Shown: positions 4,661 through 36,312 of the stretch, in pieces
Layout: each line of letters begins with the position of its first letter
Position numbering within the stretch: the stretch's first letter is position 1
Program-made: the position numbers and the translations under genes
IMG/VR virus record: IMGVR_UViG_2579778938_000006
Direction: 5' to 3' (one strand)
Source of the DNA: a virus
Taxonomy: Duplodnaviria; Heunggongvirae; Uroviricota; Caudoviricetes
Length of the DNA stretch: 36,312 nt
Notes under the pieces: model-generated
What the model saw: only the letters and a program-made list of their open reading frames with translations
What the model was told of the DNA's origin: nothing
Database searches by the model: none

Positions 4661-5514
4661 GCACCATCCTGAAATGGGCGGGAAATAAAATCGCCATTAT
4701 GTCCGAACTGAAAAAACACCTTCCTGCTGGCCCGCGACTGGTTGAACCTTTCGCGGGTTCCTGTGCTGTGATGATGGAGACGGATTACCCCAGCTATCTT
4801 GTTGCGGATATTAATCCTGATTTAATCAACCTCTATAAAAAGGTTGCTGCTGATTGCGAGGCGTTTATATCTCGTGCCAGAGCTTTATTTGAGGAAGCAA
4901 ACAGGGAGGTGGCTTATTACAACATAAGGCAGGAGTTTAATTACTCCACTGAAATTACTGATTTCATGAAAGCGGTATATTTCCTGTATCTCAATCGTCA
5001 TGGTTACCGTGGATTATGTCGCTATAACAAGAGCGGGCATTTCAACATTCCGAACGGTAATTATAAAAATCCGTATTTCCCTGAAAAAGAAATTCGCGCA
5101 TTTGCAGAGAAAGCCCAGCGTGCAACGTTTATCTGCGCAAGCTTTGATGAAACGCTGGCGATGCTGCAGGTGGGGGATGTGGTGTATTGCGATCCGCCGT
5201 ATGACGGTACGTTTTCCGGCTATCACACTGATGGCTTCACTGAAGATGACCAGTATCACCTGGCATCCGTTCTTGAACATCGATCATCTGAAGGTCATCC
5301 GGTCATTGTTTCTAACAGTGACACATCCCTGATTCGTTCGCTGTATCGCAATTTCACTCACCACTACATCAAGGCAAAACGCAGCATCGGCGTGTCGGCT
5401 GGCGAGAGTAAATCTGCAACAGAAATCATTGCTGTTTCCGGGGCGCGCTGCTGGGTGGGATTTGATCCTTCGCGTGGCGTGGATAGTTCTGCCATGTACG
5501 GAGTGCGTGCATGA
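4657..5514 (+). CDS. dam: DNA adenine (N6) methyltransferase, Dam family
   Basis: Motif I FAGSCAV and catalytic DPPY; N-terminal WAGNK; ATGA overlap with the upstream gene. Confidence 0.85.
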
Positions 5515-7925
5515 GCCATGATGATATGAACAACTGCAGCGGCTTTAACGAGGTCGCCGCAGCATTCTCATGGAACAGCCCGAAAAAGGCTATTAACCCT
5601 TATCTGGACCCGGCGGAAGTTGCGCCGGTTTCTGCGCTTTCAAACCTGATCACTCTGTACGCTGCCGATAACGAGCAGGAACAACTGCGCCGCGAGGCAC
5701 TGAGTGATCAGGTCTGGGAGCGTTATTTCTTTAATGAATCCCGTGATCCTGTCCAACGCGAAATGGAGCAGGATAAGCTCATTAGCCGGGCAAAGCTGGC
5801 GCATGAGCAGCAGCGTTTTAACCCGGACATGGTCATTCTGGCAGACGTTAACGCCCAGCCTTCCCATATCAGCAAGCCGCTGATGCAACGTATTGAATAC
5901 TTCAGCAGTCTGGGCAGGCCAAAGGCTTATTCCCGCTATTTGCGTGAGACGATTAAGCCATGTCTGGAACGACTGGAGCATGTACGCGACAGTCAGCTAT
6001 CCACTTCTTTTCGCTTTATGGCAAGCCATGAAGGGCTGGACGGCCTGCTGATCCTGCCTGAAATGAGTCAGGAGCAGGTGAAACGCTTGTCTACCCTTGT
6101 CGCTGCGCATATGAGCATGTGCCTTGATGCAGCTTGTGGCGATTTGTATGTCACCGATGACGTTAAGCCAGAAGAAATCCGCAAGACATGGGAAAAGGTG
6201 GCAGCGGAAACCCTGCGTCTGGATGTCATCCCGCCTGCGTTTGATCAACTCCGCCGGAAAAGAAACCGCCGTAAACCCGTGCCCTATGAACTCATTCCGG
6301 GTTCGCTGGCGCGTATGTTGTGCGCCGACTGGTGGTATCGGAAATTATGGAAGATGCGTTGCGAATGGCGGGAAGAGCAGTTGCGCGCTGTCTGCCTGGT
6401 CAGCAAAAAAGCATCTCCTTATGTCAGCTATGAAGCCGTGATGCATAAACGTGAGCAGCGCCGTAAGTCGCTGGAGTTTTTCCGTTCTCATGAACTGGTG
6501 AACGAAGACGGCGACACGCTGGACATGGAGGATGTGGTAAACGCCAGCAGCAGCAACCCTGCGCATCGCCGCAATGAGATGATGGCCTGTGTTAAAGGTC
6601 TGGAGCTTATCGCGGAAATGCGCGGTGACTGCGCCGTTTTCTACACCATCACCTGTCCGTCACGTTTCCATTCCACGCTAAATAACGGCAGGCCCAACCC
6701 GACCTGGACAAATGCGACGGTAAGACAAAGCAGTGATTATCTGGTCGGCATGTTTGCTGCATTTCGTAAGGCGATGCACAAAGCCGGATTGCGCTGGTAT
6801 GGCGTGCGGGTGGCTGAGCCGCATCATGACGGTACAGTTCACTGGCACCTGTTGTGTTTTATGCGCAAAAAAGATCGCCGCGCCATTACTGCTTTGTTGC
6901 GTAAGTTTGCCATTCGTGAAGACCGCGAGGAGCTGGGTAATAACACAGGACCACGCTTTAAGTCTGAGCTGATAAACCCGCGCAAAGGTACGCCAACAAG
7001 CTACATCGCGAAATACATCAGTAAGAACATTGACGGGCGTGGTCTGGCTGGCGAGATCAGCAAGGAAACGGGTAAATCCCTGCGTGATAACGCTGAATAC
7101 GTTAATGCCTGGGCGTCTCTGCATCGTGTTCAGCAATTCCGCTTCTTTGGTATTCCAGGGCGTCAGGCTTACCGTGAACTGCGGTTGTTGGCTGGTCAGG
7201 CGGCAAGGCAGCAGGGTGACAAAAAAGCAGGTGCGCCGGTACTGGATAACCCGCGCCTTGATGCCATCCTGGCTGCTGCTGATGCTGGCTGTTTTGCCAC
7301 CTACATTATGAGGCAGGGCGGCGTGCTGGTTCCTCGCAAATATCACTTGATCAGAACCGCTTATGAAATCAATGAAGAGCCGACCGCCTATGGCGATCAC
7401 GGTATTCGTATTTATGGCATCTGGTCACCCATTGCAGAGGGCAAGATCTGCACTCATGCAGTGAAGTGGAAAATGGTTCGTAAAGCCGTTGACGTTCAGG
7501 AGGCGGCAGCCGACCAGGGCGCTTGCGCCCCTTGGACTCGTGGCAATAACTGTCCCCTTGCTGAAAATTTGTACCAACAAGGGAAAGACAAATCAGCTGA
7601 TGGGGATACCAGAACGGATATCACCCGTATGGATGACAAGGAGTTGCACGATTACCTGCACAGTATGAACAAAAAAGAACGCCGGGAACTGGCTGCAAGG
7701 TTACGCCTGGTGAAACCGAAACGGCGTAGAGACTACAAACAGCGAATTACAGACCATCAACGACAGCAGCTCGTCTATGAACTGAAGTCCAGAGGATTTG
7801 ATGGCAGCGAGAAAGAGGTCGATTTACTCCTTCGCGGCGGCAGTATTCCGTCAGGAGCAGGCCTGCGTATCTTCTATCGGAACCAGCGTTTGCAGGAAGA
7901 TGATAAGTGGCGGGATCTGTATTAA
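5511..7925 (+). CDS. A: Replication initiation protein A (rolling-circle HUH endonuclease, P2 gpA family)
   Basis: 804-aa protein with HUH-like VHWHLL and tyrosine block [10 protein letters not shown]; position after the early regulators. Confidence 0.85.
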
Positions 7926-9016: not shown

Positions 9017-10135
9017 ATGTATCTTTTCAAGTATTACCGTCCGGACTTCTTCTTCGAGAAAGCTATTCGTTATAATGAATTATATTTTTCCGCTCCTGCG
9101 CAATTGAATGATCCTAATGATCTCAATATAGATTATCGTTTTGATAATAAATTGAAATTATGGGATATTTTATTGCGTTCTCCTTGCGATAAATCCTATA
9201 AAAATTTGAGTCACATATTAGATTTGAGTAATTTGAATATACATAAGGGATTGAATCGTATTTTTAGAGGAAAAAAAATAAAAAGTAGCATTGAGTCATT
9301 AGATAGCCTGTTTGACTCACACGTTGATGAGATACGTAAGATCATAAATGATGGTTTACTACCTATCAATGTGATTAATTCCGCTATTTATGGGAATATT
9401 CCTGAACCACGCCAATTTTTGGTCTCACTTTGCGAGAACAGTATCAAAGAAAGGTTGTATAGGAAAATAGTTCCTGCAGTATTCAGTGTGTCATTTTCAG
9501 CTAATGCGTTAGATCGTATGATGTGGGCGCATTATGCTGCAGGCTTTAGTGGTTGTGTTGTGATTTATGAAACGCAGGATTTTAATATTAATGGCGTACC
9601 ACATCCTGGAATGAAGTTAAGAGAAAATTTATTTTCATCAGATAAAATTAATTTTCCAGTTAAGCCAATAAAATATAGTAATCAAGCTAAAGAGGTTTCA
9701 CTTCTAGACCCAAGCGCAAATGTTGCAGAGTTATTTTTAACTAAAAATAGATTTTGGAGATATGAAGCTGAATATCGAATGTTTATTCCAGAGGCAAATG
9801 CAGGAATAGGGAGTGAGCGGCATGTTCAAAGACACGTAAATCGAAATATTGGACATGTTTTTCATCATGATGCTAATGTTGTTAAAGGGATCATTTTTGG
9901 TCCTAGAATGTGTGAAATGAAAAAAGAAAGCATATGGAATTGTATCAAGTCAAATATGGAGAATTCAAATTCAACAATATGTTATTTTTTTGACTCTGAG
10001 TTATCAGCATCAGGAAAGATTACTATTTCAAAAGGGCAACGAGCGGAAAAAATGAAAAATTTCCCTTTGTTCAGGAACAAGTTAAGTCAGACGGAAATGG
10101 CTAAAGTTTTGAAGGAAATTGGCATTACGAACTAA
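9017..10135 (+). CDS. Hypothetical 372-aa cargo protein, DUF2971-like N-terminus; candidate anti-phage gene
   Basis: Very AT-rich; N-terminus LFKYYRPDFFFEKAIRYNELYFSAPAQLNDPNDL resembles the DUF2971 signature as I recall it; own terminator downstream; in the P2 old/tin hotspot position. Confidence 0.6.
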   Translation: MYLFKYYRPDFFFEKAIRYNELYFSAPAQLNDPNDLNIDYRFDNKLKLWDILLRSPCDKSYKNLSHILDLSNLNIHKGLNRIFRGKKIKSSIESLDSLFDSHVDEIRKIINDGLLPINVINSAIYGNIPEPRQFLVSLCENSIKERLYRKIVPAVFSVSFSANALDRMMWAHYAAGFSGCVVIYETQDFNINGVPHPGMKLRENLFSSDKINFPVKPIKYSNQAKEVSLLDPSANVAELFLTKNRFWRYEAEYRMFIPEANAGIGSERHVQRHVNRNIGHVFHHDANVVKGIIFGPRMCEMKKESIWNCIKSNMENSNSTICYFFDSELSASGKITISKGQRAEKMKNFPLFRNKLSQTEMAKVLKEIGITN

Positions 10136-10201
10136 CCTAACAACAGTGCATGCCTATGCTGCCTGAATTTGCATGACCGTTTGAGGATCGTTTTTGCTAA
10201 G

Positions 10202-10225
10202 GCCCGCCAGAACTGGCGGGCTTTT
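10202..10225 (+). terminator. Rho-independent terminator (GCCCGCC-agaact-GGCGGGC-TTTT)
   Basis: 7-bp GC stem, 6-nt loop, T-run; 67 bp downstream of the 372-aa gene stop. Confidence 0.7.
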
Positions 10226-10270
10226 GCGTGGATCAGGCACCTGCATGAAAACCACTACACAAAGCGGGCA

Positions 10271-10283
10271 GGCGTGGCGGGGA
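10271..10283. other. cos: cos-like motif GGCGTGGCGGGGA (possible cohesive-end site)
   Basis: Matches the first 13 nt of the P2/186 19-nt cohesive end as I remember it (GGCG[A/T]GGCGGGGAAAGCA); diverges after that. Confidence 0.3.
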
Positions 10284-10409
10284 TACGAGCGCGCGCTAGA
10301 AACGTTTACTGATATTCTTGTAGTACATTGCATTTTTCTTTTTTTATGTCATATCATTAGCCATTTGAATAGGACATTATTATCAATTTGTTGTCTCTGA
10401 GGATAAGTT

Positions 10410-12191
10410 ATGAATTTTGATGCAACACCACTAAATATAAAAAACATTCTATCTGTAAAACAAAGATATGTTATTCCTCGTAATCAACGTGAGTTTAGTT
10501 GGGAAAAGCTTCAGCTTGAAGAGTTATGGCAAGATATTGTCAGAAACATAAGGTTGAATGAAGATGGACAGAACTTGGAGTGTTCAGAATATTTTATAGG
10601 GACTATTGTTCTTTCTGGAGCAGATAGTGATGATGTATTAGAAGTGGTTGATGGACAACAACGATTTTCAGTTATTACTATATTGCTTTCATTAATATCG
10701 CGTAAATTGCGTTCCTTAGGGCAAGATTCATTAGCGGATGATATATTTAAAACATATATCGTTACTGTGAGTCCTACATTTAGCAGAAGCCAATTAGCTT
10801 CAAATGGTGAGACATTTATTGAAAAATTAGCAAAAAATAGCGATAGAACATATTTTAAGTTAAAATATCAAGATCGCGAAGAGCATCAAGTTGATGAATC
10901 TTGTGAAGAGGATGTACGTATAAGTTATGCAGGAATTTTTCTTTCTAGAAAACTAGGGAGGAAATCACTCTGTTCTGCATTGTTGCGAGATGGTGCAAAA
11001 CATTATAATAACCAAGATTATATATTTTGTTTGACTGCTGTATATAGAATGATTACCAATTATTTGAAGTTGGTAAAAATATCTGTAGGTAAGGAGGATG
11101 ATGCTTATGATATTTTTGAAGTGTTGAATGCTCGAGGGATAAACTTAAGTTCAATTGATTTGATAAAGAATAAAGTATTCCAAACTTGCACTCAAACATA
11201 TCCGGTAGATATTGCAAAAACAAAATGGGATTATATCGTTACTCAAATTGAGTCTAGGGATAGTAATAGCACTATTGCTGATTATATTAGAACGTGGTGG
11301 CTTTCTAAGTATAATTATATTGGAGAAGATCAACTTTATCGTGCTTTTAAACGTGAGATTCAAGATGAGAATACTTTATTGTCATCAGCATCATTTCTGA
11401 ACGAATTATATGATGATGTTGAATTATACTGTAAAATAATAGCGCCAAATACAGATGACTGGCCTCAACCTGATCAGCGTGAAATTTACAACTCGTTAAA
11501 AGCATTCGAGATTTTTAATGTGAGTATTCCTCGACCATTTGTACTCTCATTACTTAGAAAACGTAAAGAGAAACCGAGAGCCCTTACACAATCAATGCTG
11601 ATAGAATGTTTGAAGTCCTTAGAGTCATTTCACTTTAAGTTTAATGCAGTATGTCGTCTAAGACCATCTGGAATCGATGCAAAATATTCTGTATTAGCAG
11701 TAAGAATGAATAAGGCATTAAATAAAAGAGATGTTGAGGGTGTTATTAATGACGCGTTAGATTATTTTACACAGAAAGGGCCTTCAGAAAATATATTCAA
11801 ACAAGCATTTTCAAAGAATATTGTTTATACAAATAAAAAGTCTGGGCAAAGGAAGTTGATTGTTTATATTTTTGACAAATTGGAACGTATCAGACGAGGG
11901 ACACGAGAGTTAAAAATGGATATAGTTTCTTTGGAACACATATCATCTCAAAGCAAAACTAACGAGTCAGTCGTGGGTATGATTGGTAATTTACTACCAC
12001 TCTGTTTTTCACTTAATGAAGATTGCAAAAATTATGAGTTGCACAAAAAAATAGAATCTTATAAAAAATCTGATTTAAAATTAGTTACAGAGTTTGTTAG
12101 TGAGTCAGAAGCAAGAGAACATAAATGGGATGATTCATTAATAAAAGAAAGAACAGATAGCTTGGCGTTAGAAACGTTTGCTAAAATATAA
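10410..12191 (+). CDS. DUF262 (ParB-like/GmrS) + DUF1524 (His-Me finger/GmrD) fusion nuclease, 593 aa; GmrSD/BrxU-like type IV restriction candidate
   Basis: Motifs VIPRNQREFSWE, VDGQQRFSVI, FEVLNARGINLSSIDLIKNK (DUF262) and SLEHISSQ...GNLLPL...NEDCKN (DUF1524-like); AT-rich; GAGGA SD. Confidence 0.8.
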   Translation: MNFDATPLNIKNILSVKQRYVIPRNQREFSWEKLQLEELWQDIVRNIRLNEDGQNLECSEYFIGTIVLSGADSDDVLEVVDGQQRFSVITILLSLISRKLRSLGQDSLADDIFKTYIVTVSPTFSRSQLASNGETFIEKLAKNSDRTYFKLKYQDREEHQVDESCEEDVRISYAGIFLSRKLGRKSLCSALLRDGAKHYNNQDYIFCLTAVYRMITNYLKLVKISVGKEDDAYDIFEVLNARGINLSSIDLIKNKVFQTCTQTYPVDIAKTKWDYIVTQIESRDSNSTIADYIRTWWLSKYNYIGEDQLYRAFKREIQDENTLLSSASFLNELYDDVELYCKIIAPNTDDWPQPDQREIYNSLKAFEIFNVSIPRPFVLSLLRKRKEKPRALTQSMLIECLKSLESFHFKFNAVCRLRPSGIDAKYSVLAVRMNKALNKRDVEGVINDALDYFTQKGPSENIFKQAFSKNIVYTNKKSGQRKLIVYIFDKLERIRRGTRELKMDIVSLEHISSQSKTNESVVGMIGNLLPLCFSLNEDCKNYELHKKIESYKKSDLKLVTEFVSESEAREHKWDDSLIKERTDSLALETFAKI

Positions 12192-12227: not shown

Positions 12228-13265
12228 TCACATACACTCCACAGAGTATTCACTGAATGAGATGATGTTTTTTTTAGCCCATTCATTAAGTTGCAGAATA
12301 TGTTTTTGAATTGGTAGTAACTCATTCATAACAAATACTTTCGCGGCCTTTTCCACATCCCCAAACCCCCCAACATTATTAGGCATAATCCCCATCATTT
12401 GCGGTGGCACACGATGCGCCGCCATCATGTCATCCCGGCTCACGTTCTTGATGTTTAGAAACTCATCCTTCGCCGCCACTTCTGACAACGGGATAATCTG
12501 AAGTCCGTCCTTTTTCCCGTTAGGCGAGTACATAAATAGGTTGCGGAAGTTACCTGGTCCTTTGGCGCTTTTCATCGCATTGCGGAGGTTGTTCACGTCC
12601 TCCTGGTTCTGCGCGGCATCGGTCATGTACATGATGAAGCCAGCATGACTGCCGTTTATGTAATACTTTCGACGGAACAGCGTGGCGGACTCATTGAGCA
12701 GGGCGGACGGAATAGCAGAAAGATAGCCGGGCAGGCCATAGATCTCCTGATTTATGTCCGGTTCCATCAGATGGAAAATGCTGCCTTTCGTGAACTGATA
12801 CGGCTGCGTAGTCATGCCGTATTGCACAAACCAGTAGGTATCCAGGTCTAATCCGCGTCGGGTGTATTTTGCCAGAGCAGGCTCAAGGGCGATAACTTCA
12901 CCGAACCGGTTTGTGCGTTTCTCCAGGTAGGCGTTACCAAATACCAGATAGTCCTGCACAAAACGCGAAAAAGCCTGCTGGCTGAGCAGCGGATGAGGGA
13001 TATAGGTACTGGTCAGAATGTTGCATTTCACCGCAATTGGTGAACTGTGGTGCACGGCAGCGCGGAAGGTGCGCGCCAGTCCGTCAAAGCTGACGGGCGG
13101 CTCATACCAGCGATCTGTCTGTACGCATTCCACATAGTCCAGCAGTTCTCGGCGGTCCAGAACAGGAACGGGATCGCCGAAGCTGAATACTTCGGCTGTA
13201 GTCTGGCTTTTAAGCTGGATCTGTTTCGTCGCCGCAGCGCGGTTTTTCTTACTCTTTCCCATCAA
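12228..13265 (-). CDS. Q: Portal protein (P2 gpQ)
   Basis: 345-aa ORF, P2 synteny (Q-P leftward, O-N-M-L rightward); overlaps the P stop. Confidence 0.85.
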   Translation of the reverse strand: MMGKSKKNRAAATKQIQLKSQTTAEVFSFGDPVPVLDRRELLDYVECVQTDRWYEPPVSFDGLARTFRAAVHHSSPIAVKCNILTSTYIPHPLLSQQAFSRFVQDYLVFGNAYLEKRTNRFGEVIALEPALAKYTRRGLDLDTYWFVQYGMTTQPYQFTKGSIFHLMEPDINQEIYGLPGYLSAIPSALLNESATLFRRKYYINGSHAGFIMYMTDAAQNQEDVNNLRNAMKSAKGPGNFRNLFMYSPNGKKDGLQIIPLSEVAAKDEFLNIKNVSRDDMMAAHRVPPQMMGIMPNNVGGFGDVEKAAKVFVMNELLPIQKHILQLNEWAKKNIISFSEYSVECM

Positions 13266-20989: not shown

Positions 20990-21520
20990 TTACGCACTTA
21001 ATAAACTTAAATAACTTTTTATGCTTTGGCAAAAAGGGAAAAGGTCTATTTTAATTTTCCAGTTTTTTTTGTTTTGAACCCCAGAAGCAATAATAGAACC
21101 ATCCCAATATTTTATTCCATTTTTGCCGGTCTTTTTTGTTAACTCAAAACTTAATGCGTGAATAATTTTATTGCAGCATTCGCGTATAGAACCTTTAACA
21201 TGACCATCTATAACAAAAAGTATATTTTCATGTTCTTCAAATGCTTCTTTCTCAGGTGAGTAATCTGGGTTCCACTCATGTTCACTAGTGTCTTGGAGAA
21301 TTCGTAGTTTTGTACAAAGGCTAATAAGATTGTTGCTAATGGTATATTCCAACCATCCGTTGTACGATAACTCCTCCATTTCAAATTCAGTTACTATAGA
21401 ATCATCATATACTTTCTGTGTGGAATATATACGCTGTAAATAAAATTCAGATGAACAGCATAATTGCTCAATTATTCTTGCGTGTTCTTCTATAGCGTAA
21501 TAATCAATTGGATGGCTCAT
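20990..21520 (-). CDS. Hypothetical moron protein (176 aa; 189 aa if started at 21559) between tail genes S and V on the opposite strand
   Basis: AT-rich ORF antiparallel to the late operons; AAAGG SD before ATG 21520; convergent with S, divergent from V. Confidence 0.6.
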   Translation of the reverse strand: MSHPIDYYAIEEHARIIEQLCCSSEFYLQRIYSTQKVYDDSIVTEFEMEELSYNGWLEYTISNNLISLCTKLRILQDTSEHEWNPDYSPEKEAFEEHENILFVIDGHVKGSIRECCNKIIHALSFELTKKTGKNGIKYWDGSIIASGVQNKKNWKIKIDLFPFCQSIKSYLSLLSA

Positions 21521-21551
21521 TCTTTTACCTTTCTTCGATTGGAATTGTATT

Positions 21552-21569
21552 TGTGTCATTTACCACACA
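21552..21569. promoter_or_regulatory. TGT-N12-ACA dyad (Ogr/Delta site) upstream of V (PV-like late promoter)
   Basis: TGTgtcatttaccacACA centred ~55 bp upstream of the V ATG. Confidence 0.45.
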
Positions 21570-23445: not shown

Positions 23446-24043
23446 TCTGCTGCCACCGGGTTCAACACCACTGGAGCGCCGACTGGCGCAAACCTGCAGC
23501 GGGATTTCTGATCTGCAGGTGCCGCTGCGTGACTTGTGGAATCCGGCGACCTGTCCGGTCAGCTTCCTGCCTTATCTCGCCTGGGCGTTCTCTGTGGATC
23601 GCTGGGATGAGGGCTGGACTGAAAGCGTCAAACGTCAGGTGGTGAAGGATGCTTTTTATATTCATCAGCATAAAGGAACCACCAGTGCCGTGCGGCGGGT
23701 AGTGGAACCGTTCGGCTTCCTGATCCGCATTATTGAGTGGTGGCAGACCGGAGAAACACCGGGCACGTTTCGCCTGGATATCGGCGTGCAGGACCAGGGC
23801 ATTACTGAAGATACCTATCTGGAACTTGAGCGACTGATAAGCGATGCCAAACCATGTAGCCGTCACATGATCGGCATGTCCATTAACCTGCAGACCAGCG
23901 GCCCGCATTGGGTGGGAGTCGCCAGCTATCTTGGCGAAGAAATCACGATCTATCCGTATATCAACGAAACGATTATTTCCGGTGGCACCGCGCATGAAGG
24001 CGGGGCGGTCCATGTTATTGACACAATGAGAGTGAATCCATGA
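23438..24043 (+). CDS. I: Baseplate/tail protein I
   Basis: 201 aa; synteny. Confidence 0.85.
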   Translation: MNSLLPPGSTPLERRLAQTCSGISDLQVPLRDLWNPATCPVSFLPYLAWAFSVDRWDEGWTESVKRQVVKDAFYIHQHKGTTSAVRRVVEPFGFLIRIIEWWQTGETPGTFRLDIGVQDQGITEDTYLELERLISDAKPCSRHMIGMSINLQTSGPHWVGVASYLGEEITIYPYINETIISGGTAHEGGAVHVIDTMRVNP

Positions 24044-25791
24044 GCACAAAATTTTATACCCTGCTGACGGATATTGGCGCGGCGAAACTTGCCAGCGCCG
24101 CCGCGCTCGGTGTGCCTTTAAAAATTACCCATATGGCGGTCGGTGATGGCGGCGGAACATTGCCAACGCCGGACGCAAAGCAGACTGGGCTGGTGAATGA
24201 GAAACGCCGGGCTGCGCTGAATATGCTGTACATCGACCCGCAGAACAGCAGCCAGATTATTGCTGAACAGGTGATCCCTGAAAACGAGGGTGGTTGGTGG
24301 ATACGTGAAGTGGGCCTGTTTGATGAGTCCGGAGCATTGATTGCCGTGGGCAACTGCCCGGAAAGCTATAAGCCGCAACTGGCTGAAGGCAGCGGGCGTA
24401 CCCAGACCGTGCGTATGGTGTTGATTACCAGCAGCACGGACAATATCACCCTGAAAATCGACCCTGCTGTAGTACTGGCAACTCGCAAGTATGTGGATGA
24501 CAAAATATCAGAGCACGAACAGTCACGACGTCACCCGGACGCCTCGCTGACCGCAAAAGGTTTTACTCAGTTAAGCAGTGCGACCAACAGTGAATCCGAA
24601 ATACTGGCCGCAACACCGAAGGCAGTGAAGGCTGTATATGACCTTGCAGCAGGTAAGGCACCTGTCAGTCACACGCACCCGTGGAATCAGATAACAGGTG
24701 TACCTGCAGCCTCGCTGACGGTAAAAGGCACCGTGCAACTCAGCAGCGCCACTAACAGCACATCAGAAACGCAGGCTGCCACACCAAAGGCAGTGAAGGC
24801 GGCATATGACCTTGCAGCAGGTAAGGCACCTGTCAGTCACACGCACCCGTGGAGCCAGATAACGGATGTGCCTGCAGCTTCACTGACGGTAAAAGGCACC
24901 GTGCAACTCAGCAGCGCCACTAACAGCACGTCAGAAACGCAGGCTGCCACACCAAAAGCTGTGAAGGCTGTATATGACCTTGCCAATGGAAAACAACCTG
25001 CCGACGCCACGCTGACCGCACTGGCAGGCCTTGCCACTGCGGCAGACAAACTTCCGTATTTTACGGGGAATGATACAGCCAGCCTGACAACCCTGACTAA
25101 CGTTGGACGGAATATTCTGGATAAAGCAAGCACACAGGCGGTTATTCAATATCTTGGTCTGAGCGATGCAAGTGGATACGTTGGACGCTGGCTGAATACC
25201 CGGGTTTTCACCTCATCAGGTACGTACACCCCGACGCCAGGAACAAAACGGATCAGGGTCACAATAACTGGCGGCGGTGGCGGTGGGGGCGGCTGCAAGG
25301 CTATATCCAATAATGAAACGTTTTTCGGTGCTGGCGGTGGGGCCGGTGGAACAATAATTTCAATAATGACCCCGACACAGAATAGTTATCCAGTCACTAT
25401 CGGCGCAGGTGGGGCCGGTGGTGTTAGTGCGACGTACGGCATCAATGGCGGTAATAGCTTATTCGCATCGTTAATTGCTCCTGGTGGCGCAGGTGGCGGG
25501 AAAGTGGGAGTTACAAATACAAACGGCGGTAACGGAGGTGTGCCGAGTACTGGCGATATCCGCATCACTGGTGGAAATGGAGGCGACGGTCAGTCCGGAA
25601 ATATCAGCGTCAGCGGTGAAGGCGGAACATCGTACTGGGGTGGCGGTGGACGCGCAGGCGCTGGCGGTGGCGTTAGCGGTAAGGCATATGGTTCAGGCGG
25701 AGGTGGTGCATACGATGCCGGTTATAGCGGAACCAGTATGACGGGCGGGAAAGGCGCTGCAGGGATTTGTATTATCGAGGAGTTTGCATAA
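24040..25791 (+). CDS. H: Tail fibre protein H with tandem 56-aa repeats and a glycine-rich C-terminal domain
   Basis: N-terminus MSTKFYTLLTDIGAAKLA typical of P2 H; 168-bp tandem DNA repeats; C-terminal GGxGG-rich ~190 aa ending GICIIEEFA. Confidence 0.85.
   Translation: MSTKFYTLLTDIGAAKLASAAALGVPLKITHMAVGDGGGTLPTPDAKQTGLVNEKRRAALNMLYIDPQNSSQIIAEQVIPENEGGWWIREVGLFDESGALIAVGNCPESYKPQLAEGSGRTQTVRMVLITSSTDNITLKIDPAVVLATRKYVDDKISEHEQSRRHPDASLTAKGFTQLSSATNSESEILAATPKAVKAVYDLAAGKAPVSHTHPWNQITGVPAASLTVKGTVQLSSATNSTSETQAATPKAVKAAYDLAAGKAPVSHTHPWSQITDVPAASLTVKGTVQLSSATNSTSETQAATPKAVKAVYDLANGKQPADATLTALAGLATAADKLPYFTGNDTASLTTLTNVGRNILDKASTQAVIQYLGLSDASGYVGRWLNTRVFTSSGTYTPTPGTKRIRVTITGGGGGGGGCKAISNNETFFGAGGGAGGTIISIMTPTQNSYPVTIGAGGAGGVSATYGINGGNSLFASLIAPGGAGGGKVGVTNTNGGNGGVPSTGDIRITGGNGGDGQSGNISVSGEGGTSYWGGGGRAGAGGGVSGKAYGSGGGGAYDAGYSGTSMTGGKGAAGICIIEEFA
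24541..24990 (+). repeat. Tandem 168-bp repeat (~2.7 copies) inside tail fibre gene H
   Basis: Units begin at 24541, 24709 and 24877 with a few substitutions; encode ASLTxKGxxQLSSATNSxSExxAATPKAVKAxYDLAAGKAPVSHTHPWxQITxVP. Confidence 0.85.
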
Positions 25792-26204
25792 TGAATGCGT
25801 CATATGCAGTTATTGAAAATGGGATGGTTGTGAATGTCATTGTCTGGGATGGTGAGGATGAATTCACTGTGCCGGATAATCTGCAGCTCATTAATATTTC
25901 TGATATCAGTGAGCAGCCCGGAATCGGCTGGGCGTATTCAGACGGGGTATTTACTGCGCCGCTCCCTCCGGAACGTTCTCATGATGAACTGGTAGCTGAC
26001 GCTGAACAGAAAAAACAGTCGCTGATAGACGCAGCAATGGTCAATATCAGCGTGATTCAGTTAAAGCTGCAGGCCGGGCGCAAACTGACGCAAGAGGAAA
26101 CTACCCGACTTAACGTTGTGCTGGATTATATCGAGGCTGTGACGGCAACAAATACCAGCACCGCACCTGATATTATTTGGCCTGTTTTCCCTGCAAGCAG
26201 ATAA
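25791..26204 (+). CDS. G: Tail fibre assembly chaperone (P2 gpG/Tfa family)
   Basis: 137 aa starting at the ATG that overlaps the H stop; position after H. Confidence 0.75.
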   Translation: MNASYAVIENGMVVNVIVWDGEDEFTVPDNLQLINISDISEQPGIGWAYSDGVFTAPLPPERSHDELVADAEQKKQSLIDAAMVNISVIQLKLQAGRKLTQEETTRLNVVLDYIEAVTATNTSTAPDIIWPVFPASR

Positions 26205-26310: not shown

Positions 26311-27483
26311 ATGGCTCAGGATTACCACCACGGAGTGCGCGTTGTTGAAGTCAACGAAGGCACTCGATCCATTACCACGGTGAGCACCGCCATCGTGGGC
26401 ATGGTCTGCACGGGCGATGATGCCGATGCAAAAATGTTCCCTCTTAATAAACCCGTGCTGATCACTGATGTGCTTACTGCCAGCGGTAAGGCGGGTGAAT
26501 CCGGTACGCTGGCCCGTTCGCTGGATGCCATCGCTGACCAGGCAAAACCCGTGACCGTTGTTGTGCGTGTGCCGCAGGGTGAAACGGAAGAAGAAACCAC
26601 GACCAATATCATCGGCGCAGTGACTGCTGAAGGTAAAAAAACTGGTATGAAAGCCCTGTTATCTGCCCAGTCACAGCTCGGTGTTAAACCGCGCATTCTC
26701 GGCGTGCCGGGGCACGATAATAAAGCCGTTGCTACTGAGTTGCTGGGCGTGGCGCAAAGCCTGCGTGGGTTTGCTTACCTGTCAGCGTATGGCTGCAAGA
26801 CGGTGCAGGAGGCGATCACTTACCGTAAAAACTTCAGTCAGCGTGAAGGGATGCTGATTTGGCCTGACTTTACTGGCTGGGACACGGTGCTGAATGCCGA
26901 CGCAACGGCATATGCCACCGCCCGTGCGCTTGGTCTGCGTGCCAAAATTGATGAGCAGACAGGGTGGCACAAAAGCCTGTCCAACGTGGGCGTGAACGGT
27001 GTCACCGGAATTTCTGCTGATGTGTTCTGGGATCTGCAGGACCCGGCAACTGATGCGGGACTGCTTAACCAGAACGATGTTACCACACTTATCCGCAAAG
27101 ACGGCTTTCGCTTCTGGGGTTCCCGCTGTCTGAGTGATGACCCACTCTTTGCCTTTGAAAACTACACCCGCACGGCGCAGGTGCTGATGGACACGATGGC
27201 AGAAGCGCCAATGTGGGCGGTCGACAAACCGCTGAATCCGTCGCTGGCCCGCGACATTATCGAAGGTATCCGCGCCAAAATGCGCAGCCTGATCAGTCAG
27301 GGCTATCTCATTGGTGGCGATTGCTGGCTGGATGAGTCGGTGAACGACAAAGACACTCTGAAAGCTGGAAAACTCACCATCGACTACGACTACACACCAG
27401 TGCCGCCACTTGAAAACCTGATGCTGCGTCAGCGCATCACCGATCAGTACCTGGTGAATTTCGCCAGCCAGGTCAGCGCGTAA
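26311..27483 (+). CDS. FI: Contractile tail sheath protein FI
   Basis: 390 aa; AGGAGG SD; synteny. Confidence 0.9.
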
Positions 27484-27492
27484 GGGGACAAC

Positions 27493-28008
27493 ATGGCTTT
27501 ACCACGCAAATTAAAACACCTCAACCTGTTTAACGACGGGAACAACTGGCAGGGGATCGTTGAGTCGCTGACGCTGCCGAAATTCACCCGCAAATATGAG
27601 AAGTATCGCGGCGGCGGAATGCCGGGAGCAGTGGATGTGGATCTGGGGCTTGATGACAGTGCGCTGGACACAGAATTTTCCATTGGTGGTACTGAACTGC
27701 TGCTGTTTAAGCAGATGGGCAAAGCCACGGTGGATGGCATCCAGTTGCGCTTTACCGGCTCTATCCAGCGTGATGATACCGGGGAAGTGCAGGCCGTGGA
27801 GCTTGTGGTGCGTGGACGTCACAAAGAAGTGGATTCCGGCGAGTGGAAGACGGGCGAAAGCAACACCACCAAAGTGACCAGTACCAACAGCTACGCGAAG
27901 CTGACTATCAATGGTGAGGTGCTCTATGAAGTGGACCTTATCAACATGGTGGAAATTGTGGACGGTGTGGACCTGATGGAAGCGCACCGCAACGCCCTCG
28001 GCCTCTGA
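27493..28008 (+). CDS. FII: Tail tube protein FII
   Basis: 171 aa; synteny. Confidence 0.9.
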   Translation: MALPRKLKHLNLFNDGNNWQGIVESLTLPKFTRKYEKYRGGGMPGAVDVDLGLDDSALDTEFSIGGTELLLFKQMGKATVDGIQLRFTGSIQRDDTGEVQAVELVVRGRHKEVDSGEWKTGESNTTKVTSTNSYAKLTINGEVLYEVDLINMVEIVDGVDLMEAHRNALGL

Positions 28009-33238: not shown

Positions 33239-33457
33239 ATGATGATTTGCCCACTGTGTGGAAGTGCCGCCCATACTCGCAGCAGTTTTCAGGTATCTTC
33301 ATTGACCAAAGAGCGTTACAACCAGTGCCAGAACATTAACTGCAGCCATACTTTTGTTACCCATGAAACTTTTGTTCGTTCGATTGCAACGCCAAAAGAG
33401 TCAAATCCGGTTCAGCCGCATCCAATGAAATCAGGACAGGTGGCGCTCTCTCTTTGA
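33239..33457 (+). CDS. ogr: Ogr/Delta-family zinc-finger late transcription activator (72 aa)
   Basis: MMICPLCGSAAHTRSS...ERYNQCQNINCSHTF matches the P2 Ogr Cys4 pattern (CPLC...CQNxNC); last phage gene before attR. Confidence 0.85.
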   Translation: MMICPLCGSAAHTRSSFQVSSLTKERYNQCQNINCSHTFVTHETFVRSIATPKESNPVQPHPMKSGQVALSL

Positions 33458-33479
33458 CGCTGCCGCCATTTTGTCGCCA
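33458..33479. repeat. attR: attR core candidate (cgctgccgccattttgtcgcca)
   Basis: Direct repeat of 19..40 (1 mismatch); located 1 bp after the ogr stop, before the ybjL terminator. Confidence 0.6.
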
Positions 33480-33534
33480 TCGTTAAAAAACAGTGTTTCT
33501 AACATCATGATTTTAAACAGCTTAAATTTCAGGC

Positions 33535-33580
33535 AACAAAAAACCCATCAACCTTGAACCGAAATGGCGGGGTTGATGGG
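33535..33580 (-). terminator. Rho-independent terminator downstream of ybjL (minus strand)
   Basis: 10-bp stem CCCATCAACC / GGTTGATGGG followed on the minus strand by TTTTTTGTT; loop is long (17 nt). Confidence 0.5.
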
Positions 33581-33692
33581 CTCCACAAAATGGGGACATC
33601 AAAGAAAAGCAGTGGCACTAATTAAGACTGATGCCCTGCGGAAAAGTTCTGCGGTTGTGCAAAAAAATTTCATTTTCAGGGCAACTTCAGTT

Positions 33693-35378
33693 TTATCCTA
33701 ATCCTGGCCATACCATGACGATGATTGTCCCTGCCAGCGTCAGCAGGACGTTGGCGATTGCGTAGGTGCCCGCATAGCCCAGCGCAGGGATGTTACTGCG
33801 AGCTGTATCACTGATGATCTCCATTGCCGGCGCGCAGGTGCGTGCGCCCATCATTGCGCCGAACAACAGTGCGCGGTTCATTCGCAATACATAAGCACCG
33901 AACAAGAAACAGATAACCACGGGCACAAGACTGACAATTAATCCGGCAATCAACATCTGACCGCCAATCGCGCCCAGGCCGTTATTAATACCGCTACCGG
34001 CGCTCAGACCAACGCCTGCCATAAACACCATCAAGCCGAACTCTTTCACCATGCTTAATGCACCTTGCGGAATGTAACCGAAGGTCGGGTGGTTAGCACG
34101 CATAAAGCCCAGCATAATTCCGGCGAATAACAACCCGGCAGCGTTCCCCATGCCGAAACTGAATGTGCTGAACTGGAAGGTGATCATCCCGATCATCAGC
34201 CCAATAACAAAGAAGGCGCAGAATGCCAGCAGGTCAGTGACCTGGCTGTGAATCGAGATAAAGCCGATGCGATCGGCGATGGTTTTTACGCGGCGGGCAT
34301 CGCCGCTGACTTGTAAAACGTCACCTTTGTTAAGCACGACGTTGTCATCTATCGGCATCTCAATCTGGCTACGAATGACGCGGTTAAGGAAGCAACCGTG
34401 ATCGGTCAACTTCAGTTGTGCGAGACGTTTACCTACAGCGTTATGGTTTTTAACGACCACTTCTTCAGTGACGATACGCATGTCGAGAAGGTCACGATCG
34501 AAAACTTCTTTACCGTTACGGAAGCTGGGATCGAGTCGGGCATGGGCGTCGGGATAGCCTACCAACGCTATTTCATCGCCCATTTGTAGCACGGCATCAC
34601 CGTCTGGATTTGCCAGAATCCCGTTACGTCGAATACGTTCAATGTAGCAGCCGGTTTGTCGATAAATACCCAGTTCACGCAGATTTTTGCCGTCGGTCCA
34701 GGCCACCAGTTCCGGGCCGACGCGATAGGCGCGGATCACCGGTAAATAAACCTTACGGTTGGCATCAGTGTCCAGGCCACGTTCGCGGGCGATTTGCTGG
34801 GCGCTGGTCTGTAAGTCCTGATGCTGCAATTTCGGCAAGTAACGCGCACCAACAATCAAACTCACCAGACCGATTAAATAGGTTAAGGCATACCCGAGGC
34901 TCAGATTATCCAGTGCCAGTGAGAGCTGCCTGCTTTCCATGCCGGAATGACGCAGTGTATCGCCAGCACCGACCAGAACCGGTGTCGACGTCATAGAGCC
35001 TGCTAACATACCGGCCGTCAGGCCAATATCCCAGCCAAACAGCTTACCTAACCCTAAGGCGATCACCAGCGCACTGCCAACCATCACCAGTGCTAACATT
35101 AGGTAATTTTTCCCATCGCGAAAAAAAATGGAAAAAAAGTTCGGTCCGGCTTCGACCCCGACGCAGAAAATAAACAGCATAAAGCCAAGATTAAGCGCAT
35201 CGGTGTTAATGCTGAAATGTTGTTGGCCTAATAACAGCGATACGACTAAAACGCCAATGGAATTACCCAGTTGGATCGAACCAAGTCGTAACTTTCCGAG
35301 ACATAGCCCAAGCGCGAGGACCACAAATAATAACAGAATGTAATTCCCATTTAACAATTCGGCGACGTTTATATTCAC
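33693..35378 (-). CDS. ybjL: Putative transporter YbjL (AAE-family membrane protein with TrkA-C domains)
   Basis: 561-aa translation starting [34 protein letters not shown] matches E. coli YbjL from memory. Confidence 0.9.
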
Positions 35379-35647
35379 GGAGGCTAACTTCTTGTTTACT
35401 AGTAAGCTGTTGAAAGAAATGGTAATTTACGATAATGTTTTTTACCAGAATTCAGGGCGCAGATTCATTCAGCGCACCTAAACGATAGTAAAGTAACAAT
35501 ATATTTTACTAGTGTAATCACATTAGGTATCAACGGCTATATGAATTGCGTTGGCCTATATTAGCATGGAATGCGAAGCGGCTTTATCTTACTGAACGCC
35601 ACACTGGCGAAAAATGTGTTCGATAGACGCAGTGTCAGGAGGAACGA

Positions 35648-36025
35648 GTGAAACATAAACAACGTTGGGCGGGGGCAATCTGCTGTTTTGTCCTCTTCAT
35701 TGTGGTGTGCCTTTTTCTGGCGACGCACATGAAAGGCGCTTTTCGGGCTGCCGGGCATCCTGAAATCGGCTTGCTATTTTTCATTCTTCCTGGAGCAGTC
35801 GCCAGCTTCTTTTCACAGCGTAGAGAAGTCCTGAAACCTCTGTTTGGCGCAATGCTGGCGGCACCCTGTTCGATGCTCATTATGCGGCTGTTTTTTTCAC
35901 CGACGCGCTCATTCTGGCAAGAGCTGGCATGGTTACTAAGCGCGGTGTTCTGGTGTGCGCTGGGGGCACTGTGTTTCTTATTTATCAGTAGTTTGTTTAA
36001 ACCACAGCACAGAAAAAATCAGTAA
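35648..36025 (+). CDS. ybjM: Inner membrane protein YbjM
   Basis: 125-aa hydrophobic protein in conserved position between ybjL and grxA. Confidence 0.8.
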   Translation: MKHKQRWAGAICCFVLFIVVCLFLATHMKGAFRAAGHPEIGLLFFILPGAVASFFSQRREVLKPLFGAMLAAPCSMLIMRLFFSPTRSFWQELAWLLSAVFWCALGALCFLFISSLFKPQHRKNQ

Positions 36026-36054
36026 AGCCCTCAACGCGAGGGCTTGTCAGACGA

Positions 36055-36312
36055 TCAGGCGTCCAGATTTTCTTTCACCCATGCAGCAAAATCGGTATAG
36101 CCGCCGATATGTTGCTGATCGACAAAAATCTGCGGCACGGTTTCTACGGGTTTACCTGCCTTTTGTTGTAGATCTTCTTTAGTGATCCCTTCCGCACGAA
36201 TATCTACATACTGATACTGAAAATCATCGCGTTCATTGCTCAATTTCTCAGCCAGATCTTTTGCACGCACACAGTAAGGGCAACCCGAACGACCAAAAAT
36301 AACGGTTTGCAT
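36055..36312 (-). CDS. grxA: Glutaredoxin 1
   Basis: 85 aa with active site CPYC (MQTVIFGRSGCPYCVRAK...). Confidence 0.95.
   Translation of the reverse strand: MQTVIFGRSGCPYCVRAKDLAEKLSNERDDFQYQYVDIRAEGITKEDLQQKAGKPVETVPQIFVDQQHIGGYTDFAAWVKENLDA

Follow-up and report, generated by a model that had tools for sequence, protein, structure and literature searches.

Modular architecture, stepwise repeat variation and a shared glycine-rich tip in the tail fibre of a P2-like Escherichia coli prophage

Gene H (24040-25791, + strand) of IMG/VR record IMGVR_UViG_2579778938_000006, a stretch of 36,312 nucleotides (nt) that we refer to in full as the window, encodes a tail fibre of 583 amino acids (aa). 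We read H as a trimeric tail fibre that is built from four exchangeable modules, is accompanied by a tip chaperone and belongs to a complete P2-like E. coli prophage; we assign this reading a probability of roughly 0.85. In the mechanism that we propose, the N-terminal domain would plug into the baseplate and carry a shaft of Phage_fiber_2 repeats, in which the number of 56-residue units would shift by unequal homologous recombination or slippage between 168-nt repeats, and in which the His-x-His (HxH) motif of each full unit probably binds a metal ion at the three-fold axis. A connector held in common with P2 gpH would lead to a TNF-like and glycine-rich C-terminal tip, whose invariant glycine tracts may form a rigid polyglycine lattice and whose intervening residues, at the tips of distal loops, would contact the receptor by analogy with Pam3 gp24. 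The chaperone encoded by the overlapping downstream gene would fold and trimerise the tip, and tip and chaperone pass between phages as one unit. Domain assignments, the tip fold, the series of copy numbers and the presence of the cassette in several phages are shown by the analysis; trimer geometry, metal binding, loop contact with the receptor and the nature of that receptor are inferred.

Every part of H belongs to a known family, and the exact protein is already in NCBI (WP_032173769.1 / KDH00132.1). A preliminary description of the same DNA had drawn attention to the shaft repeats and the glycine-rich C-terminus of H; what it observed was confirmed in part, and its interpretation is supported.

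Domain architecture of gene H

The open reading frame (ORF) matches three Pfam families, namely PF12571, PF03406 (three times) and PF21722. The N-terminal baseplate-anchor domain (aa 1-150; 24040-24489, +) matches Phage_tail_fib (PF12571) at E 7.4e-65, with 218 bits against a cut-off of 23 and with profile positions 1-150 of 150 covered. Three tandem stretches of the shaft match Phage_fiber_2 (PF03406) with 186.5 bits against a cut-off of 22 (E 5e-56), and the match to Gly_rich_2 (PF21722) spans aa 392-580 with 50.4 bits against a cut-off of 24.3 (profile positions 2-224 of 226). Between shaft and tip lies a connector (aa 317-382, 'DATLTALAGLATAADKLPYFTGND...YLGLSDASGYVGR'; 24988-25185, +), common to P2 gpH up to the residues 'YLGL', and this end of the connector is the junction at which tips swap. 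The putative receptor-binding tip, a TNF-like beta-sandwich joined to a glycine-rich lattice, occupies aa 383-583 (25186-25788, +).

The next gene encodes a 137-aa tail-fibre assembly chaperone of the P2 G / Tfa type (25791-26204, +; Caudo_TAP PF02413, E 3.2e-19), to which we refer as Tfa. Translation of Tfa truly starts at the ATG at 25791, within the sequence TAATG that also contains the H stop codon; the sheath gene follows the tfa gene after a further 106 nt. PDB sequence searches with Tfa returned no match.

The label of tail fibre H given in the preliminary description stands, on the PF12571 N-terminus, on the P2 gene order and on 56% identity to P2 gpH from residue 1 to ~382, where the alignment stops just past 'YLGL'. 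The two fibres agree in gene position, PF12571 anchor, Phage_fiber_2 repeats, connector and the presence of a Caudo_TAP chaperone downstream. They differ in the shaft, in which P2 gpH has two 44-aa repeats lacking the HxH insert whereas H has 56-aa units, and in the C-terminus, which in P2 is unrelated past 'YLGL' (Gp34_trimer match) and in H is the Gly_rich_2 tip; P2 gpG has 175 aa, compared with the 137 aa of Tfa. Up to window position 24500-24503 the phage backbone shares ~95.5% identity with peduoviruses of Klebsiella and E. coli, and similarity breaks off there, about 155 codons inside H. By megablast against 50,697 phage records, H shares 95-97% identity with these Klebsiella and E. coli phages over nt 1-461/464 alone.

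A shaft that varies in whole repeat units

The shaft repeat array (24541-24990, +) holds three Phage_fiber_2 motifs with a period of 168 nt or 56 aa, in two full units and a partial third. As previously described, it amounts to about 2.7 copies, with full units starting at 24541 and 24709 followed by ~0.65 unit from 24877 to ~24990. Tandem Repeats Finder reports one strong array (24606-24983, period 168, 2.2 copies, 91% matches, score 651), and since this is the sole direct repeat of at least 40 nt in the whole window, chance is not at issue.

The further claim, that the copies differ by a few substitutions, holds for part of the array and overstates the rest. Identity between copies 2 and 3 is 95% for the first 60 nt and 94% for the first 90 nt, and past ~nt 106 the two are unrelated. 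Copies 1 and 2 share only 81% nt and 84% aa identity (32 of 168 nt differ), with most differences in the first ~70 nt and 5 mismatches in the last ~95 nt. Comparison with P2 gpH identifies the head of unit 1 as a P2-type first repeat. Because the identities of the units are mosaic and the head of unit 1 is P2-type, we read the array as a P2-like head, two copies of a tail-plus-head segment, and the connector; its near-identical part is a single recent in-register duplication (24606-24983), offset from the frame originally proposed. A PDB sequence search with the shaft gave a single match, the Mu fibre S repeat (5YVQ, residues 107-154).

Comparison across relatives, as the preliminary description had suggested, revealed that copy number varies. 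E. coli alleles that are ~94-95% identical in DNA carry 2, 3, 4, 5 or 6 repeat motifs in proteins of 527, 583, 639, 695 and 751 aa, where the identity refers to full-length matches and the alleles of strains AH04 and D7 carry an extra inserted domain. Among complete E. coli genomes, two motifs occur in D3 (527 aa) and AH04, three in FREC5 (583 aa, as in the window) and D7, and five in EcPF20 (695 aa). A search of 5.8 billion proteins extends this series: of its 120 best-scoring clusters, 41 represent the 639-aa form with four motifs, ~75 the 694-695-aa form (74 with five motifs, and one 695-aa protein with four) and three the 751-aa form with six motifs. Separately, the 527-aa form has a cluster of 66 members. 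In DNA alignment with EcPF20, the window and FREC5 are short by exactly 336 nt and D3 by 504 nt, that is 2x and 3x 168, and every reading frame is intact. Because alleles differ by exact multiples of 168 nt, the array expands and contracts, as had been anticipated, and recombination between the repeats is the simplest reading of how it does so.

Arrays of 168-nt repeats tend to slip and to be mis-assembled from short reads, and the differences might be a neutral by-product of repeat recombination, or assembly artefacts, with no effect on infection. We regard this alternative as less probable but of real weight. Its artefact component is unlikely and was rejected, given that alleles with two, three and five motifs occur in finished E. 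coli chromosomes with intact frames and gaps of exact 168-nt multiples, and that each size class has many independent members.

Further alleles have 44-aa repeats, or mix periods of 44 and 56 aa. The H proteins of E. coli EC130 and MS 124-1 combine a second, divergent P2-type anchor (MTVKYYAILTNQGAARL...) with the same connector and tip as H of the window, and their shafts consist of 44-aa repeats lacking the HxH insert or of 44- and 56-aa units mixed. Recombination evidently occurs between the two kinds of shaft unit.

In AH04, D7 and L3452210II, H carries an extra domain of ~110-120 aa between connector and glycine-rich tip, in two unrelated versions, and in these fibres another putative binding domain sits above the tip. 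RefSeq presents the AH04 gene (NZ_CP081706.1) as a truncated pseudogene and a separate 'glycine-rich domain-containing protein'; this split looks like an annotation artefact, because the stretch reads as one uninterrupted 659-aa ORF, as in L3452210II.

Candidate metal sites along the shaft

Each full unit of the window allele contains one HxH motif, His211-Thr-His213 in unit 1 (24670-24678, +) and His267-Thr-His269 in unit 2 (24838-24846, +). The S-H-T-H residues and the next W are invariant in 453 complete 56-aa units from 135 distinct alleles. Relative to the 44-aa repeat of P2, the 56-aa unit has a 12-residue insert, and it is this insert that contains S-H-T-H-P-W. In R-pyocin fibres, T4 gp37 and the P2 gpV spike, three HxH motifs (six His) bind Fe octahedrally on the trimer axis (PMC6116203). 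By analogy, the HxH of each full unit would form a metal site on the fibre axis, and the window allele would have two such sites.

Fold and candidate receptor of the glycine-rich tip

The C-terminus is rich in glycine, as first noted, with 33% Gly in the last 192 aa compared with 6.9% in the first 392. A HMMER scan with the tip identified 1010 relatives (E <= 1e-10) among 1.84 billion cluster representatives. Structure prediction, which the preliminary description had proposed for this region, gave a confident AlphaFold2 model from an alignment of 106 of the 1010 relatives, with a predicted local distance difference test (pLDDT) value of 94.7, a predicted template modelling score of 0.89 and 193 of 217 residues at pLDDT >= 90. 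The model matches the three-dimensional fold of a solved member of the family, Pam3 gp24 (7ypx_A; structural comparison score 22.7 over 201 residues at 31% identity). Lower scores were obtained with mycobacteriophage Bxb1 gp33 (tail wing brush, 17.6) and gp29 (tail spike, 12.6), and with the ALK glycine-rich domain (ALK-GRD; 8.6 for 7lir_B and 7.9 for 7ls0_C); in ALK/LTK (PDB 7LIR, 7LS0) this domain belongs to the ligand-binding ectodomain of a eukaryotic receptor tyrosine kinase, and the likeness is one of fold only.

Foldseek comparison with predicted viral structures gave 275 matches at E <= 1e-3, including Escherichia jumbo phage Goslar (template modelling score 0.95), fibres of cyanophage, Xanthomonas, Edwardsiella and Achromobacter phages, and giant-virus proteins. 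The tip thus belongs to a class that is widespread and has been described before. It is not identical to any fibre of known receptor, and a literature search under the Pfam name Gly_rich_2 returned plant papers only.

A domain that is one-third glycine, with matches suppressed by BLAST low-complexity filters and with 308-aa relatives named 'carbohydrate kinase' in many NCBI records, could be taken for a low-complexity, disordered or collagen-like linker, or for an enzyme, in place of a folded receptor-binding domain. We rejected this interpretation as highly improbable and already contradicted.

The tail fibre gp24 of cyanophage Pam3, whose chaperone is gp25 (PDB 7YFW/7YPX), forms a trimer. 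It differs from H in being a minimal fibre of ~280 aa that has an alpha-helical anchor but lacks a shaft of repeats, and its chaperone has no detectable sequence match to Tfa. Across 107 diverse homologues of the tip, 7 columns are invariant and 14 near-invariant, and 20 of these 21 are glycine. Among 150 close variants the glycine tracts are invariant, and changes lie between them, at aa 420-424, 439-447, 464-476, 484-489, 504-513 and 523. By analogy with Pam3 gp24, these variable residues would lie at distal loop tips in contact with the receptor.

The sole homologue with functional data is TFP_Y of Klebsiella phage SCNJ1-Y, itself a homologue of gp24. Mutations that restore infection of a lipopolysaccharide (LPS) mutant map to its glycine-rich domain, as do the host-adaptation mutations at T169 and S209, and the purified protein interacts with LPS and blocks LPS-triggered DNA ejection (PMC12671077). 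TFP_Y is a short fibre from another phage lineage and is likened to the window tip by membership of the same TNF-like/glycine-rich class, not by direct comparison. By this analogy, LPS is the most likely receptor of the fibre.

An unlikely but credible alternative keeps the same fold and replaces LPS by a loop of an outer-membrane protein, as for the polyglycine-rich gp38 adhesins of T2/T6/S16/PP01. The adhesins of the T2/T6/S16 type resemble the tip in that their glycine-rich motifs form a rigid lattice offering variable distal loops to the receptor; they differ in that gp38 (T2/S16) is a separate small monomeric cap protein, whereas the glycine-rich domain of the window is the C-terminus of H itself.

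Spread of tip and chaperone across fibre types

The same tip, 87-96% identical, occurs after the linker 'LGL.D.SGYVGR' behind four other N-terminal architectures. Its commonest other carrier is a 308-aa protein called 'carbohydrate kinase' in NCBI, in which Gly_rich_2 is the only match. The corresponding gene follows a Mu-type baseplate (homologues of gp45/46/47/48) and precedes a 137-aa Caudo_TAP protein that is 87-93% identical to Tfa. The 308-aa protein is a misnamed tail fibre. Hundreds of 308-aa 'carbohydrate kinase' proteins of E. coli are short tail fibres bearing this tip, and in these loci with a Mu-type baseplate the cognate tfa gene comes next and is followed by an O-antigen-type acyltransferase gene.

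A more distant carrier is gp090 of Goslar (1324 aa), with a PF12571 N-terminus and a tip 72.6% identical to that of H, adjoined by the Caudo_TAP chaperone gp089, which is 62-65% identical to Tfa. It differs from H in its far longer shaft with one Phage_fiber_2 motif, and in belonging to a nucleus-forming jumbo phage. Goslar was the only isolate with this tip found by tblastn among the 50,697 phage records, probably in part owing to the low-complexity filter, which masks the glycine tracts. We found no report of the Goslar receptor in the literature. Scanning one genome of each species revealed the tip in P2-like H proteins of Serratia, where it follows a single repeat, and a full-length E. coli copy of H was not recovered.

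Tip and chaperone travel between phages as one cassette, and such spread is classical mosaicism of tail-fibre genes.

Programmed switching of the fibre

Invertible segments (Mu/P1) and diversity-generating retroelements act on the tail-fibre C-termini of related phages, and host range could in principle be switched here by either kind of programmed mechanism, through inversion or through retroelement action on the tip. We consider this barely conceivable for H. In agreement with the preliminary description, which had seen no invertase and no inverted duplicate fibre segment, the sheath gene is the next gene after tfa, and no inverted repeat touches H; all inverted repeats in the window are <=28 nt with 74-83% complementarity. 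No tip segment recurs in the window to provide a template repeat, the sole direct repeats of at least 40 nt there are those of the shaft array, and the other large ORFs of the window encode P2 core functions or belong to the defence cargo. A Mu G / P1 C-type invertible segment was rejected for want of an invertase ORF or inverted repeats at H, and a diversity-generating retroelement on the tip for want of a template repeat within the window.

Points weighed against the modular fibre

Several points weigh against the reading of H as a trimeric fibre whose tip contacts the receptor. Its trimer geometry and metal sites are drawn by analogy. The link to Pam3 gp24 comes from the predicted structure and Pfam: a sequence-only PDB search with the tip aligned it end-to-end with the Pam3 fibre at a non-significant E of 0.46, with strong compositional bias. 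The placement of variable tip positions on distal loops was read from the pattern of the sequence only. Many E. coli prophages whose shafts differ greatly have a tip that is 87-98% conserved, and in the E. coli group shaft length is more variable than the tip. Variation in copy number could, finally, be selectively neutral.

A bolder proposal, which we hold to be doubtful, treats the 168-nt unit as a rheostat of fibre length, with copy number rather than tip sequence as the main fast-evolving variable of host range and with the cassette tied to one receptor class. If so, each added unit would be one metal-clamped HxH segment, unequal crossing-over would yield variants with 1 to 5 segments that differ in how far the tip reaches through O-antigen or capsule, and the cassette would define a receptor class common to P2-like prophages, Mu-type-baseplate prophages and Goslar.

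Significance

H is a solid if unexceptional example of how phages shuffle host-recognition modules, and it leaves current understanding of phage host recognition unchallenged. Modestly new are the series of 2-6 copies in exact 168-nt steps, the invariant HxH of each 56-aa unit, the placement of the tip in the Pam3 gp24 / ALK-GRD fold, and the correction of the 'carbohydrate kinase' name. A tip that is found in many E. coli prophages, and that is currently labelled 'phage tail protein', 'glycine-rich domain-containing protein' or, wrongly, 'carbohydrate kinase', can now be assigned to one particular solved fold and to a plausible class of receptor. Moreover, the clean 'LGL.D.SGYVGR' junction and the co-transferred 137-aa chaperone offer a recipe for tip swaps onto P2, Mu-type and tailocin scaffolds, and the natural series of two to six copies provides a ready test of whether fibre length affects adsorption.

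Prophage setting and neighbouring genes

The window represents a complete prophage of the P2-like (Peduovirus-type) group, with E. coli as its host: the right flank (33400-36312) matches the ogr / grxA-ybjM-ybjL region of many E. coli chromosomes at 100% identity. At its left end the window has genes for an integrase and a 186-type CI repressor; next come CII, replication protein A, a cargo region, portal, terminase and morphogenesis genes. Near H the genes run S, V (a spike protein with an Apex motif), W, J (PF04865), I (PF09684), H and tfa (PF02413), followed by the sheath and tube positions, so that H occupies its place in the P2 tail operon, 3' of gpJ and gpI and 5' of the Caudo_TAP chaperone, sheath and tube. 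By synteny, a 390-aa ORF (26311-27483) corresponds to the annotated sheath gene of relatives and a 171-aa ORF (27493-28008) to the annotated tube gene.

The cargo region (9017-12191, +), between replication gene A (5511-7925) and the portal gene (12228-13265, -), contains two defence-type genes. One encodes a 372-aa protein that matches the PADLOC candidate system PDC-S31 (E 2e-23) and, weakly, DUF2971; the other encodes a type IV restriction-like GmrSD_N/GmrSD_C protein of 593 aa with a match to PADLOC HEC-06 (E 7e-75). A 189-aa ORF (20990-21559, -) lies between tail genes S and V on the opposite strand and has no Pfam or PADLOC match. The same spot comprises only 69 nt in FREC5 and D7 and holds a TIR-domain gene in D3 and AH04; it looks like a second cargo hotspot.

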